A stretch of DNA of 63,049 bases, counting the filler, from Atractiella rhizophila (Eukaryota), in NCBI GenBank assembly GCA_021432655.1. It is 4 parts of 4 records of this genome, joined end to end, with 100 filler letters (N's around TTAATTAATTAA, not from the genome) between each part and the next. Parts side by side here need not be neighbours in the genome. Positions count along the whole stretch, not along the records: positions 1 to 27,849 come from MU271741.1; 3 more parts are not named here. One strand, 5' to 3'. This document shows positions 16,489 through 24,337 of this stretch, in pieces (positions within the stretch are counted from its first letter, which is position 1; every line of letters starts with the position of its first letter). The position numbers and the translations under genes were made by a program. Under the pieces are notes generated by a model that ran no database searches, was not told where the DNA came from, and saw only the letters and a list, made by a program, of their open reading frames with translations.

Positions 16489-19400
16489 TCAATCAGTTTT
16501 GACCTTAGCCATCCCACTAATACCCATCCCCTTCAAATCTCCTCCGCTCCGACTCCTGCTCCGACTGAACCTGCGCCGTCTTCCGCTTTCTGAACTCCCT
16601 CTGCTTGTTGAATTTCTGGGTACATAAGAATCGAGAACGTTCTGTCATCACACAAACAGGTCCCATCAGCCTTACATTGCGGAAATCACAGAAGCGGAAA
16701 GAAACTCACGATAGCCTCGTCATAGTCCGCCATCTCCCCCTCGCTTGCTTCACTGTGCTCCCCATCCGCTCCGTTCAACCTCTTCTCTCCACTGCCACTC
16801 CCGCTCGACCACCCGAAGATCCTATCATCCATCCAACTCATAGGGTTCCGTAACGGGTTCTTTTCGTCGCTCCTTCCCCTCCCCTCAGGATTCGAGGTGG
16901 GAGGATGATAAAGCCGCATCTTCTCGAAATTGTCAAACACTGTCGGTCCAAGTGTGGTGATGATCTCATTCACTTCAAACTGGAGCGCACGTCGCATTTC
17001 TCGGAGTTTTTGCAGGCGTGAGGAATTGCCAGGCATCAGAGAAACAGTGAGCGGTGCCAAGGATCTGATTATGAGGTAGGATCAGCGTAGTTCATCAAAG
17101 AGAGGACAACATACTTATAAATGTCCATCCCAACTTCTCCAAATTTCAATGCAGAGTATCCCACGGTCGGGAGCGCCAGAATGGTAAGAATTGGAGTCCA
17201 AATCTTCCACCTCAGCGGCCAGTTGTACCTGAACGCGATATACGTGGCAATTGCGACGTAGGTTCCATAGAGAGGAGGGGCGATACCCAGTGAAACAAGC
17301 ACTTTCCAGGTCGCAAGAACATCGCGGCCTTCTAACTTGACAGTTGATGCGGCTAGTGCCTCTGTACACAGCAAAGGTCGTCAGGAGTGGTACGGGTGCG
17401 GAGGGAGTGACGAACCCTTTGCTTTGCGATGGCTAATCACCTTCGCTGCGATGAACATGGGTGCGTTAAGCACAACTCCGGGTAATGCGAGGACACCCCA
17501 GACGGTTAAAAGACCAGTACGATAGAGGAGGAGGACAAGGGATTTCCACGCTGGTCGGTTCGCGCTCTCCACCTGAAATCATGCGGGTCATCAGACCCAG
17601 AATGCGACACAACTCGAGCAACAGACCTGATGATCCTTCAAGCCCATATACGCCAGCTCTTTGTTGTACCGCTGAACATCAGCCAGCGCTTTTTTAACCC
17701 GGGGATGGTCTTTGTACACTTCGTAGCCAGTGATAAAACGTCGATTCAAGTCTACTACTTGCCCTAGTGTTGGGTGCTGTCCAGGTGGCACGTAAAGTCT
17801 GCGAGTAGCTTGTATCAACTATTTCCCTCCGGTCAGTATGCTGCTGCTACCCTCGTTACGGGGTGCTGGAAAAGATGTACCATCAAAGTTTCATAGTCGT
17901 CTGCCCTAACTGTCACGCTCTTCAAGCCATTGAGGACGAGATCCATAACGCCGCCAGTCGCCTTGCGCTTCTCGTCGCCTCCGGCCTTGTAACCATTGAC
18001 AAGTTCTGCAGGAATCTCAATGGGATGTCCAAATTCGACAACCGCTCTCGAACGGAATTTATGAGGATGAAAGTAGGACAGGCCGACCGGCACGATCTTT
18101 ACGTTGAGGCCTTCATTATTGGCCATCGCCCCAAGCGCCATGAGGGAAACGCCAGCTTTGAGGGGGAGGAGGTCCGTGCGGTCGTGCGATCCGCCTGTTG
18201 ACGTCGCGTTAGCGTGCAAGGCGGAAAGAGATGGTGAAGCAGAAACGAACCTTCAGGAAAGATGCCGATCGAGCCTCCTTCTTTAAGCTGCTTGTAGACT
18301 TGCCCGTACATCTGCGACTGGTCAATATGGGGAAGGATTTTGTAAGCCAAGCCCTTTCCCTCTTCCTCCGCTTCTAATCTGCACGACTGTGAGCTTGCAC
18401 AATCCACAGAGTAGAAGGCAACTTACAAAGCCTGTTTTGGTTTCGAAGAAAATTCCTTCTTGACCTTCACACGTTCGTCGTCCAGCACCTCCACAACTTC
18501 AACTTGAGGGAATCCGTACTCTTTTCCTAGCATGATCTGTTTCTTGGGCTGTAGAGAATCCGTGAATTTTGTCCCACGGCCATAGATTATCGTTCCTTCA
18601 TCCGACGATTTCATGTACAACGTTCCAGCACCCTTCACTGCATTGTCGGCTGCCCTCGCAACAGGAACTGTAAGATAAGAAACACGTTAGTGGTGCCCTT
18701 GAGAATAGAAATCAAAAGGAGAAAGCGAGTACCAATCAGATCTCTGTTCGACGATCTTCTTGCTCCAAACCGTACAGAACGGTTTCGTGTGAAACCAGAG
18801 CTGACGGATTTGGGGTCAGCGATGATAATCCATAGTGAATGGTGTTTCGTCATCGGTGCTCGTTAGGATTGGGGTCTAAGCTAGAAAGAGAAGGCGGCAG
18901 CGCCGACAATTCAACGGGTGTCGCTGCAAGTTCGCGAAAGAACAACTTGATTTAATCCCATGTTTTCTTCCTCCAGGGGAGAAGCTCAACGATATCTCTT
19001 CGAATGTATGAAAGTCATTCTCGAGAACCTCTCCGGTATCTCCATCCAAAATTGTGGGACAAGTACGACCGTGCAATTGCAAGGTAGCATTGTTCACCAC
19101 AAGTATCAGCTACGAAAATGGAACAGGATTGGTCGCGAAAATGCAGAAAGAAAAATAAAATATAACATAGATGGACGCAGGACAGGGGAATCCCGTTGTT
19201 GAGCTCCCCAACCACTCTACACTGCACAATGTCCATCCCATCTCTCAATCCAAACGGACAATCAAGACACATACTGCTCTTAAAGATGCTGGCTCCAAGT
19301 CCTATAAACTGCCTCTTCATGCTATGCTCAGCAACCAAAAAGCTGACTCTCCTGCCCGAAGCCTCTCTGACCACCAAAGCGAGGATCAAGTCGAGGAACT

Positions 19401-19569
19401 GATTGGCATGCGGGCCGGCCGCAAAGATGATGGGACCTTCTTTGGGGATGTTGTGCGCGCCCCTCGTCCTCACTTCTCGAAAGAAGACGTGGACGATGAG
19501 ACCAAATGCACCGAGAGAGAGGTCGTACATCACGTTGGACGCGAGCACGCTGGAGGAGAGAGAGGCCAT
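16489..19569 (-). CDS. SCT1: Glycerol-3-phosphate/DHAP sn-1 acyltransferase (fungal GPAT), proximal first-exon isoform
   Basis: FFREVRTRGAHNIP...GPHANQFLD, RRVSFLVAEHS, IGIFPEG|GSHDRTDLLPLKAGV, YFHPHKFRSRAVVEFG, LKFGEVGMDI; last exon ends AKVKTD-stop at 16489. Confidence 0.9.
18728..18860 (-). ncRNA. Candidate intronic box C/D snoRNA-like RNA
   Basis: Minus strand reads agcaccg-ATGACGA (C-like)...CTGA (D')...internal hairpins...CTGA (D)-ttggtact, with a near-complementary terminal stem, about 60 nt upstream of the 3' splice site of a long GPAT intron. No target identified. Confidence 0.4.
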
Positions 19570-20150
19570 GGTGCAGGATTGTAAGGTGAGATAGGATGGT
19601 GTGCTCTTGTCCTTCCACCAGGATCCCAGTCCAATATCCCACCCAACCCCAACAAGGTGCGCAATATCACAGAAGAACTAGAAATTAAGATTTAAGGACA
19701 ACACTACAGACGTCATAACAGCATAACCTTAACCTCGCCAGATAAGCTGTTAACCTCCTTCCAGCTCCATAGATGCCAAACTAATCAATGCAAAGTGTTG
19801 TCACACAGATTAACCGCGAAACATCACAGTGTTCGTTTCCCAACGCTGTCAGTTGACATGTAATGTACATTGATTTGCCCTTGGTACATGAATCCCAAGG
19901 CCAATCCCGTTCCAGTCATGCAACCACAGCCATCCAAGCGCGGCAAAGACGGCAAAAGAGGACATGAAAGTTTCGCCGTAACGAATGGAATAAACTGTAA
20001 AAGTCGGCCAAAGACTATATCAGTTGCACAACCTCTAAGCTATTTGTGTTGTGCGCTTTGTTGCGGGAGCATTGAATCAACCAAAAGAAGCTCAAGCTCA
20101 CAATCTCACATCCCCAATTCCCATGGACATATAAAGAAGAATGTACGTAC

Positions 20151-20628
20151 TACTCTTCAACAACATGGACATGGTTCCCACGAATGCCCTCTTCCAGCTC
20201 TTTTCCGCAATCAAAAAGCTAACTCTCCTCCCCGACCTCTCCCTCACCACACTAGCGAGGATAAGCGGGTCCAAGAACTGATTATGATGCGGCCCGGCGC
20301 AGAAAATGGTCGGTCCATCAGTTGGGATATTGTGTGAGCCTCTCGATCGGACTTCGCGGAAGAAGAGGTGGACGATGAGCTGGAGGAGGGAGATGGCGAG
20401 GTCGTACAGTATGTTTGAGGCGAGGAGGCCTTGGGAGCGTAGCATGGTTGCGAGGAGGTAGAGCAAGCGGGAGCGGAGGGAGGCGAGGAAGGGATGCCGT
20501 AGGAGTTTGCGGAGGGGAGAGGGCAAGAGGGAGCTGAAGCGGTGGAGGATGGGCCGTAAGTCCCCCGACTCAGGCAAGGAAGTGTCAGGCGACGGAGGAA
20601 GAAGCAGAAATGAGAGAACCGATGACAT
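20151..20628 (-). CDS. Duplicated distal alternative first exon of the GPAT gene
   Basis: Encodes LASNILYDL...FFREVRSRGSHNIP...GPHHNQFLDP...RRVSFLIAEKS, paralogous to 19275-19569; ends at a phase-1 donor A|GTACGT at the same protein position. Confidence 0.75.
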
Positions 20629-21965: not shown

Positions 21966-23546
21966 TTAACCACCCAAGTAAAAGTATGGTCTCTCATAAT
22001 CATCCAAATTATTACCACCGAGTTCGCCAGCTCTTACTGCAGCCGTTTGTACGTCCAAGTTGGTCCATTCGCCATAAAAGAGGTGAACCCAAACCATCGC
22101 CTCTCTAGGCAAAAGCCGTTCAATGAGAGGTATGAAGCCATCGAATTCCAACGAACAGAAGCGGAGCTCGAGTTCCTTCAAATTCACCAAGCGGAGGAGC
22201 ACCGGTGTTTGAAATGTATCGATGGGGAGGACGCCGCTGTTTTCATGTCCTCCTTCGATGACTACATCTGTGAGATTGGGAAAGACTGAGAGATTGAGTG
22301 GGCGGGAGAGGATGAGAGTGTGCCGAAATTCAAAGCGACCTATTTTGTTGGATGGATCGGAGAAGCGGAAGACGAAGTTGGTGATAGTTGGATGTCGCGA
22401 ATGCGCCGCCAGGTCAAAAGGCAAACAATTTTCAAGCGTGAGATCTTTAAGATTCGGAGCGTCCAATAAGGAGGCGATGATGGGCGTGATGTAAAGGTTG
22501 CTCAAGACGAGGAGAGTGAGTTCGGATGGTCCAGGTCTGAAAGTCGGCACGGCATTGATTTCCTGTCGTAATATCAGCGCTCGATCAGTGCTTGTCAGAT
22601 GAAGTGTCTCGAAAGTGTCCCACGATTTAGTGTTCCGTAAAAAGCTCTCTAGGATCGTTTGAGGCCAATTGGAAAGTCCAGGGCGACTAATGGTGCTCAA
22701 TCCTTCCAACAAACCAAGGGCTTCTTGTTGTCTGAAGGAAGAAGGACAGTCAAGTTCGATCTCTGTGACTGCTGGTTGGAAAGCCAGAGTTGCATAGACG
22801 AGACGTTGGAAATCCACTCCAGCTTCTACATCTTCAAATAAAAAGTTGAGTTGATTCCAACATTTCATGATTTGAGGAAACGAGGTCAGATGCCTTAACT
22901 TGAGCTGGCCATTGGAAGGTTCGACCATCAATATCAGCGCACGTTCCTTCCACGCAGAGCAAGTCGTGGTACAAAGTTCGTATCCCTCTTCATGCTCTAG
23001 TACCGATTCGAGGATCTTGTCCAAAGTTTCAAGTGGTAATCTGTCAAAAAGGGGTTCTGATGTTTTCGTGGAAAGTTGAAAGATAGCAGAAGTCCTCCAT
23101 CCGGAGGGGATGAAAGCAAAATCGTCAGGATCAATGGATAGAGCTCCAGATGTACGCGTGACGCTGACTTGGAAAGTACGAACCACTTGATGTTGAAGCT
23201 GAGAATCAGCGATGAAGACTTTGAGTGGGTCAAGTATCACCACGTCTGTCGTCCGTTTCTGCTCCTTATATCCTGCGTAGTAGATATGGAGGGAAGATGC
23301 ATGAGTTGACACATCAACCACATGTTGTCGTTCGCACTCTCCATCCCAATCTGAAGCCAAGAGGTGTAGATATATCTTTTCTACGGAGGTGGATAGAGCA
23401 AAGGACTCGGTCCAGCTCAGAACGACTTGTTCGTAAGGAGACTCTGAAAGCGGATGTCGCTCTGCAGTGTGTAAGTCGACGTCGTCGTCTCGGTCGTATT
23501 GATAGAAATGGAAAATTGGCACTCCTTCGTGCTGATTTGACTCCAT
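21966..23546 (-). CDS. Intronless 526-aa protein with internal F-box-like motif and LRR-like C-terminus
   Basis: Long uninterrupted ORF; LFDRLPLETLDKILESV resembles an F-box; LxxLxL repeats (PNLKDLTLE, NLKELELR). Confidence 0.6.
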   Translation of the reverse strand: MESNQHEGVPIFHFYQYDRDDDVDLHTAERHPLSESPYEQVVLSWTESFALSTSVEKIYLHLLASDWDGECERQHVVDVSTHASSLHIYYAGYKEQKRTTDVVILDPLKVFIADSQLQHQVVRTFQVSVTRTSGALSIDPDDFAFIPSGWRTSAIFQLSTKTSEPLFDRLPLETLDKILESVLEHEEGYELCTTTCSAWKERALILMVEPSNGQLKLRHLTSFPQIMKCWNQLNFLFEDVEAGVDFQRLVYATLAFQPAVTEIELDCPSSFRQQEALGLLEGLSTISRPGLSNWPQTILESFLRNTKSWDTFETLHLTSTDRALILRQEINAVPTFRPGPSELTLLVLSNLYITPIIASLLDAPNLKDLTLENCLPFDLAAHSRHPTITNFVFRFSDPSNKIGRFEFRHTLILSRPLNLSVFPNLTDVVIEGGHENSGVLPIDTFQTPVLLRLVNLKELELRFCSLEFDGFIPLIERLLPREAMVWVHLFYGEWTNLDVQTAAVRAGELGGNNLDDYERPYFYLGG

Positions 23547-24337
23547 GTCTAGAGTCGGGAGCTAAGTCACCGTGTTAGGTTCTCTCGTAAGCATGCTACG
23601 TATTTATCGTGCTCATCGCATTACTGATTCACTTGTCATACTTGACAGGTCTGTAAATTGCTGAATTCAACAGCTCTCACAGCTGAAAGAGAACTCAGAA
23701 ACTATGTTGGATTTGTTTGGATGAATTGCAGACAGACGTGCAGCTGATGTCTAGTTTGAAATCATTGACGGCTTTATATCTTTTGCTAGACTATTCGAAA
23801 GAATTGGAACATGCATCACAAATGACACTTCCCAACACTAAATTAAAGTGTGAAAATCTCAAGCCTTATAGACCTTTCGCCGTGAAAATGGTTCGAACAG
23901 TTGACCTATCCAAGCACAGAAAGAAAGGCTCACAAGATAATACCCTCTGAAAATTGCGCACGCTGTTAAGCTCACAGAGAGAATGCAATAACGATCTTAC
24001 GAACGATGCGGGTCTGCTTCAGTTCTGCTGGAGGAAACAGATTTATTATGAGACTGCAACGGCTTTGTTAGTCCTCTCTAGTTATTCCATCACTATTCCG
24101 ACACTAAGTGTAACCCGACGGAACCAACAAAGACCTGAAATCGATTGCGTTGACCTGCACTCGCACTTCTCACTCAGCCTCTATCACACGGCAGTCTTTA
24201 CTTCTTTGTCACGCTAAGACACAGCTTCCCGCTCGCACATTCGCAGCTCGCAACCCGGCCAGCGGACAGCATCCGAGGGACCGTCCGCTCATAACTTACT
24301 GTAGCTCTGGAGGCGAGGCGCACTCGCGGTCGCGAAC

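Follow-up and report, generated by a model that had tools for sequence, protein, structure and literature searches.

A GPAT gene with a duplicated first coding exon

In a 63,049-nucleotide stretch of the genome of the root-associated Pucciniomycotina fungus Atractiella rhizophila (assembly GCA_021432655.1, filler letters included; hereafter the window), a single gene for a glycerol-3-phosphate acyltransferase (GPAT) probably gives rise to two isoenzymes. Its first coding exon is present as two tandem copies, termed E1a (distal) and E1b (proximal), and the reading we favour, with a probability of roughly 0.78, is that this is one GPAT-A gene whose first coding exon was duplicated in tandem and whose two copies now act as alternative first exons, giving two predicted isoforms. 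The gene lies on the minus strand from 20628 to 16489, contains introns and is of the SCT1/GPT2 type (fungal GPAT-A). GPAT is the first enzyme of fat and membrane-lipid synthesis and sets the first acyl chain in every glycerolipid; an organism usually has several GPAT isoenzymes, encoded by separate genes. The features of the locus are as follows, with a slash marking splice sites here and below.

20151..20628, minus strand: E1a, the distal first coding exon; 478 nt, 159 codons plus 1 nt; ATG at 20628; donor A/GTACGT
19275..19569, minus strand: E1b, the proximal first coding exon; 295 nt, 98 codons plus 1 nt; ATG at 19569; donor A/GTATGT
18427..18667, minus strand: shared exon 2, starting with motif II, IPVARAAD
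16489..18378, minus strand: shared exons 3-9 (18378-18251, 18194-17881, 17818-17627, 17572-17416, 17361-17115, 17064-16710 and 16641-16489, stop TGA), with motif III FPEGGSHD and motif IV IVPVG; the spliced translation is P0006
18668..20150, minus strand: intron of the E1a transcript; 1483 nt, GTACGT..TTACAG; encloses E1b and its start region
18668..19274, minus strand: intron of the E1b transcript; 607 nt, GTATGT..TTACAG
19570..19640, minus strand: likely 5' untranslated region (UTR) of the E1b mRNA and putative internal promoter or start region, placed from contig ends and depth; no ATG within

Both exons have a length that leaves a remainder of one when divided by three and end in phase 1, and the ATG of each is the first in-frame one past a stop. 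They also end alike, E1a with AAG AGT A/GTACGT and E1b with AAG AGC A/GTATGT (K-S-A/GT in both). The sole acceptor common to the two, TTACAG/TTCCTGTT at 18667, opens I-P-V-A-R-A-A-D in frame with either exon. The original prediction had described two paralogous exons with their own ATG, phase 1 ends and a shared acceptor at 18667, and all of these sequence statements hold. The frame is open throughout with either first exon, and the predicted products are 754 aa via E1a and 693 aa via E1b, of which 595 residues are common to both. The remaining seven introns of the gene are 48-68 nt long.

E1a contributes an N-terminal extension of 66 residues, the first long helix and motif I as HHNQFLD; E1b encodes the first long helix and motif I as HANQFLD, without the proline after the catalytic aspartate. 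The active-site difference is as previously claimed, HHNQFLDPLIL in E1a versus HANQFLD-LIL in E1b, and the distal exon, said to add about 60 N-terminal residues, adds 61 by our count (159 versus 98 aa). At the nucleotide level the two exons are identical at 144 of 193 positions (75%, E 4e-19, blastn); at the protein level, tblastn with either exon recovers the other one at 65-66% identity (E 1e-35 to 1e-38), so that their likeness is well beyond chance. About 34% of residues differ across the first long helix and the motif I region, and the places that differ are the N-terminal extension, the central part of the first helix, the eight residues just ahead of motif II and the proline after the catalytic aspartate. 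Searches of the 63-kb window with each exon (tblastn) returned no third copy, and the sequences flanking the two coding parts have no significant similarity to each other. We rejected an allelic misassembly, since the proteins of two alleles would be much more alike than 66%; in addition, an independent run has contigs across the E1b-to-intron boundary (19092-19290) and the whole spacer (19610-20142).

RNA evidence for both splice joints

The RNA evidence consists of the assembled contigs of four public runs (X17, X18, X1 and X5), in which joints can be read and levels cannot. X5 is on record as a soil metatranscriptome; X17, X18 and X1 were treated as RNA because their contigs skip the other introns of the GPAT gene, those between exons 2 and 9 being skipped without exception in X17 and for the most part in X18 and X1. 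At intron 3 (18193-18253) the X17 joint follows the gene model (GT..AG, 56 skipped), and in X18 and X1 the joint lies 2-3 bases away, its two sides separated by one additional letter, which is probably a small strain difference in sequence and not an alternative splice form.

E1a and E1b are each joined to exon 2 in these RNA-derived assemblies. The 20151>18667 joint, which skips 1483 nt and reads CT..AC on the plus strand (GT..AG on the gene strand), is present in one contig each of X18, X1 and X5, three separate studies, with 100, 56 and 39 letters on the shorter side, respectively. In X17, two contigs that end at 20151 extend by up to 21 letters, 20 of which match the start of exon 2. The 19275>18667 joint is seen in two X17 contigs that end at 19275 and extend by up to 14 letters (13 of 14 matching the start of exon 2) and in an X18 contig that extends by 9 letters (9 of 9), and it is also contained in the public gene model P0006. 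Compared with the adjoining intron sequence, the 21-, 14- and 9-letter overhangs disagree at 19, 12 and 7 letters. The sole mismatch in both X17 overhangs is position 18654, and since the two share it we take it to be a strain variant. The exon 2 13-mer of the E1b overhang occurs once in the 63-kb window. Thus, both junctions that the original prediction had called for are found in the assemblies.

The contigs also bear on where transcription may begin. Contig depth is a poor measure of abundance; in X17 it is about 270-280 on E1b, 335-640 on E1a and 2-12 on intronic stretches. Just upstream of E1b it falls from 278 in the bin 19473-19639 to 11.9 in the bin 19640-19806, and an X18 contig covers 19275-19633 and ends at 19633. 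Depth drops likewise upstream of 20642, and beyond that position there is no cover in any run. None of the contigs of the four runs contains an acceptor for E1b or a joint between E1a and E1b, although contigs cannot show absence, and gaps in cover in X5 and X1 (for example, over E1b in X5) were not counted as absence. An mRNA with both exons would break the frame, as 295 nt is not a multiple of three. Since no contig shows an acceptor for E1b, and since a clean 5' UTR leads into its ATG, which stands in a CACCATGG context, we consider that the alternative first exons are chosen by the site of initiation. Transcripts starting upstream of 20628 would splice E1a from its donor at 20151 over 1483 nt to exon 2, with E1b lost within the intron, and transcripts starting near 19640, inside the E1a intron, would splice E1b from its donor at 19275 to exon 2 through the shared 18667 acceptor. 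Exon choice would then be set by the transcription start and not by a splicing switch, with separate promoters presumably serving E1a and E1b.

Public annotation of the locus

The public record treats the locus as two genes. P0006, the hypothetical protein BT69DRAFT_1356523 [Atractiella rhizophila] of 693 aa, is identical letter for letter to the translation of the E1b form. The second entry, P0130 (NCBI, 176 aa; 20098-20628, minus strand), is E1a read past its donor into 17 more codons of intron. A search with E1a for longer proteins gave five matches, the best of which, from Rhodotorula, is 49% identical, and no annotated protein joins E1a to the body of the gene. The annotation could be taken to mean that E1a stands apart as a small gene of its own, or is the dead product of a partial duplication, and that the locus makes a single GPAT. 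We regard this as very improbable, since the canonical joint to exon 2 is found in three runs of three studies, with an overhang in a fourth, and is in frame. The original prediction had reserved this outcome for a distal exon with no transcript linking it to exon 2, and such a link is what the contigs contain. Furthermore, E1a keeps all catalytic and near-invariant residues, and the intron part of P0130 is covered at a depth of 11.9 in X17, compared with 335-640 on the exon. P0130 is therefore a mis-called stub, in truth the first exon of an unannotated 754-aa isoform.

Family assignment and predicted structure

Fungal GPAT-A enzymes are described, in the available part of a survey of the family, by four motifs: I, H-x-N-Q-F-phi-D; II, phi-pi-V-x-R-x-x-D; III, FPEGGSHD; and IV, phi-phi-P-[V/C]-G (PMC4207751). 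Motif I is matched by both copies, as HHNQFLD in E1a and as HANQFLD in E1b (P0006 His54 to Asp60). The catalytic motif had been written HxxxxD in the original prediction; the motif is present, but not with HX4D spacing, as the same part of the survey counts H-x-N-Q-F-phi-D as HX5D. Motifs II-IV of P0006 (IPVARAAD, residues 99-106; FPEGGSHD, 219-226; IVPVG, 255-259) all lie in shared exons. The spacing between successive motifs is 38 (39 with E1a), 112 and 28, which is within the ranges of 35-46, 97-132 and 26-28 given there, although the counting convention may differ by one residue. P0006 carries a precomputed PF01553 (Acyltransferase) assignment. Orthologs at 49-57% identity bear the name glycerol-3-phosphate O-acyltransferase or the label "related to SCT1". 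Taken by itself, neither first exon reaches the cut-off of 23 bits for this Pfam domain (20.1 and 13.8 bits). By motifs, spacing and orthology, the locus is assigned to the fungal GPAT-A family (SCT1/GPT2 type), with acyltransferase activity as its predicted function.

The AlphaFold model of P0006 has a mean predicted local distance difference test (pLDDT) score of 75.2. In the part encoded by exon 1 it consists of an N-terminal helix (residues 2-29), two strands, the catalytic loop, a helix (residues 59-71), a further strand and two short helices. Sequence search found no relative of P0006 with a solved structure. Foldseek searches with the model matched human GPAT1 (8e4y; E 6.7e-4, probability 1.00), PlsC (5kym; probability 1.00, template modelling score 0.52 on the target) and squash GPAT (1iuq/1k30; probability 0.97), and on the strength of the model P0006 is predicted to have a GPAT/lysophospholipid acyltransferase (LPLAT) fold. 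Between motifs II and III the protein has a strand-rich insert of about 112 residues (about 107-218, exons 2-3), which is typical of fungal GPAT-A. This insert gave many weak Foldseek matches to pyruvate kinases (probability 0.2-0.4), and in the model it is perhaps a small barrel resembling the pyruvate kinase B domain.

The 754-aa and 693-aa forms would have identical motifs II-IV, membrane helices and tail. They would differ by the 61-residue basic extension rich in leucine, serine and proline, present in the E1a form only, at about 34% of positions across the first helix and motif I region, and by the proline after the aspartate. Such differences fit membrane placement or regulation, the acyl-CoA site, or both, and the isoforms may differ accordingly in acyl-CoA preference, regulation or location.

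Relationship and divergence of the two exons

Trees of the exons were built on 92-93 shared columns, with IQ-TREE run in "quick" mode on 38 rows picked from a set of 120; four more of the 42 rows chosen for it were not among the 120. E1a and E1b are sisters within Pucciniomycotina in both, with a FastTree support of 0.946 (120 rows; branches of 0.22 for E1a and 0.40 for E1b) and an IQ-TREE SH-aLRT (Shimodaira-Hasegawa-like approximate likelihood ratio test) value of 95.7 (38 rows; branches of 0.18 and 0.46). On these trees E1b is the derived, faster-evolving copy, its branch being about twice as long. E1a looks ancestral in form, since it has the consensus HHNQFLDP and an extension common to other Pucciniomycotina. 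This extension aligns with the sequence just ahead of the first helix in Rhodotorula, Pseudozyma and other members of Pucciniomycotina and Ustilaginomycotina, with weak pairwise support (E 0.010), and for many library proteins the alignment to the profile begins at positions 11-30. E1b starts just before the first helix, like the Agaricomycotina orthologs. Among the first 66 residues of E1a are 19 Leu, 12 Ser and 8 Pro, with 8 Lys/Arg versus 3 Asp/Glu. Given that charge balance and an amphipathic peak near residues 25-45, a mitochondrial presequence is conceivable as a weak idea; against it, the homologous segment is internal in orthologs, where it follows 100-190 other residues.

Over 94 codons, E1a and E1b differ with a nonsynonymous rate (dN) of 0.30 and a synonymous rate (dS) of 1.15, a dN/dS of 0.26 (NG86) that is pairwise and does not separate the two branches; other methods give 0.30 (LWL85) and 0.09 (maximum likelihood). 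Identity is 0.68, 0.84 and 0.50 at the first, second and third codon positions. We compared the two exons with 118 orthologs, a set that leaves out proteins whose blastp match to the E1a core spans fewer than 71 query residues or starts before residue 1. Both copies retain 16 of 16 invariant columns and 23 of 23 columns conserved at 95% or more, and 29 or 28 of the 30 columns conserved at 90% or more. All three between-run differences listed in the first exons (19408, 20215 and 20466) are synonymous; 72 more across the stretch are not listed individually. Our tentative reading is that the duplication took place within the Atractiella lineage and is old, dS being about 1.

An alternative that accepts both mRNAs is that full GPAT activity belongs to the E1a form only, the E1b form being decaying, regulatory or inactive (for example, a truncated competitor). 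The long E1b branch, about 1.8-2.5 times that of E1a, speaks for this, as does the slightly lower mean identity of E1b to orthologs (50.5%, compared with 52.8% for E1a). E1b also lacks the extension conserved in Pucciniomycotina and Ustilaginomycotina and the proline that follows the catalytic aspartate in 107 of the 118 orthologs. However, that residue is absent altogether from 10 of the 118 (one has Gly), and Agaricomycotina orthologs are naturally short at the N-terminus. In addition, the near-invariant columns kept by E1b include H, N, Q, F and D of motif I, the pairwise dN/dS is 0.26 with a dS above 1, and the depth of E1b in X17 is of the same order as that of E1a, poor measure though contig depth is. 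Hence we consider this alternative unlikely, and favour the two-isoform reading.

Evidence that weighs against two isoforms, and the start of the E1a form

Several points weigh against the reading of E1a and E1b as alternative first exons of two isoforms. All of the RNA evidence comes from contigs and not from raw reads, without strand, 5' ends or reliable abundance, and X5 is the only one of the four runs whose record states RNA. The joint of E1b to exon 2 is seen solely as overhangs of 9-14 letters, with no full joint listed. The internal start near 19640 is suggested by the end of the X18 contig at 19633 and the fall in X17 depth, and translation of both forms is likewise presumed. As to ancestry, approximately unbiased (AU) tests reject neither a grouping of E1b with the Agaricomycotina proteins that lack the proline (P = 0.079, log-likelihood 29 lower) nor one of E1a with the other Pucciniomycotina to the exclusion of E1b (P = 0.090), because there are so few columns. 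No close relative was found: among the best 120 of 3033 protein matches the next ortholog is 56% identical and there is no second Atractiella protein, a library search of 1.84 billion representatives found nothing between the window's own 176-aa stub and Mixia, and a metagenome scan with the E1a/E1b alignment gave seven loci, all at most 37% identical and of no use for dating.

A further point concerns the 5' end of E1a. One X17 contig leaves the window at 20619, 9 nt past the E1a ATG, with 22 letters that are absent from it, and another departs at 20423 with 18 letters, also inside E1a; neither overhang matches anywhere in the 63-kb window when up to three mismatches are allowed. These departures possibly reflect a chimeric contig, another allele or paralog, or a 5' exon elsewhere. 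Given the departure at 20619, the E1a form may have another 5' end or start codon than the one modelled. The E1a isoform might be made without the 61-residue extension, from a downstream start such as Met61, which is in frame within E1a, or from another 5' exon, and the two enzymes would then differ in the core residues of the first exon only. The lack of cover upstream of 20642 in any run is in keeping with this. On the other hand, the frame is open from 20628, where the NCBI model P0130 also begins, X17 and X18 contigs cover the extension up to 20619 and 20602, the extension aligns with a homologous coding region of orthologs (E 0.010), and the listed variant inside it (20466) is synonymous. 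We therefore hold an E1a form that lacks the extension to be improbable, and retain a start at 20628 in the two-isoform reading.

A possible antisense transcript and neighbouring sequence

One further feature lies between the two exons.

19610..20214, plus strand: candidate spliced antisense RNA; one low-depth X17 contig (11.9)

This contig covers 19610-20142 and resumes at 20198, to which its overhang maps uniquely, and the 55 nt that it skips read GTACGT..TTCCAG on the plus strand, with GT..AG ends. Being palindromic, the E1a donor GTACGTAC reads as a donor on the opposite strand too. The contig, a single one, is a hint of a spliced antisense RNA that diverges from the E1b start region. A 531-codon open frame (21966-23561, minus strand) lies upstream of the GPAT locus. 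A bacterial-type promoter and terminator scan and a composition profile of the region were uninformative, as the organism is a eukaryote.

Comparison with known systems

Variable first exons that arose by tandem exon duplication are familiar from animals, in UGT1A and the clustered protocadherins. The Atractiella locus is like these in that homologous first exons stand in tandem, each with a promoter of its own (presumed here), before one constant set of exons, and the downstream copies are lost as intron. It differs in being in a fungus with a compact genome (other introns of the gene 48-68 nt), in having two copies only and in that the swapped part is the catalytic motif of a lipid enzyme. 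Tandem exon duplication has been reported in 7-17% of metazoan genes, and the available part of that report holds no fungal figure (PMC3342872). Alternative first exons by tandem duplication are thus already known, and it is the setting, a fungus, and the enzyme that are unusual.

Alternative starts in fungi are generally known to shorten or lengthen one and the same exon, whereas in Atractiella the start would bring in a diverged paralogous coding exon. That the use of alternative transcription starts in fungi yields mRNA and protein isoforms from one gene is described in the accessible portions of a Cryptococcus study (PMC11302930) and a review (PMC9604717). In open-access papers and preprints on Atractiella rhizophila, fungal exon duplication, basidiomycete SCT1/GPT2 and fungal alternative starts, we found no description of homologous alternative first exons in a fungal GPAT.

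The closest functional parallel is in Saccharomyces cerevisiae, where SCT1 (GAT2) and GPT2 (GAT1), of the same family and with the same four motifs, likewise provide two isoenzymes of the committed glycerolipid step. There the two are separate genes, as the original prediction had noted in agreement with the consulted part of PMC4207751, and Atractiella duplicates exon 1 only; the same text attributes the yeast pair to a whole-gene duplication confined to Saccharomycetaceae. Two full-length GPAT-A paralogs are also found in each of Daedalea quercina (P0075/P0080) and Phanerochaete sordida (P0129/P0078), 68-71% identical over more than 620 residues. In these Agaricomycotina pairs one member has NQFLDP and the other, like E1b, lacks the residue after the catalytic aspartate, as do proteins of Mycena and Lactifluus. 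The Agaricomycotina pairs are whole paralogous genes, however, and E1b groups with E1a in Pucciniomycotina and not with them, so that the loss of the proline looks convergent on the trees (AU P = 0.079 for the alternative). Beside these two-gene systems, Atractiella seems to have arrived at a similar pair through the duplication of a single exon.

A broader and tentative idea, which we consider possible rather than probable, is that two catalytic types have arisen repeatedly within fungal GPAT-A, one of them without the residue after the catalytic aspartate and with a short N-terminus. Saccharomycetaceae and Agaricomycotina would have done so by whole-gene duplication and Atractiella by exon duplication and promoter choice, with the possible help of an antisense RNA that diverges from the internal promoter. 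If this were true, exon 1 alone would hold the determinant of isoenzyme type, be it acyl-chain preference or membrane placement, and the locus would be a natural domain-swap experiment for a membrane enzyme family in which sequence search found no solved structure.

For the locus itself, the public annotation is wrong in one respect, in that the 176-aa "gene" is E1a and the 754-aa form is missing. The two-isoform reading would make it a documented fungal case of homologous alternative first exons, in which one gene provides two isoenzymes by exchanging just the exon that encodes the first helix and the catalytic His/Asp motif. This would single out the exon 1 segment of about 95 residues as the part that differs between isoenzymes, and the E1a and E1b forms would be a ready chimera pair for acyl-CoA preference or placement in the SCT1/GPT2 family.

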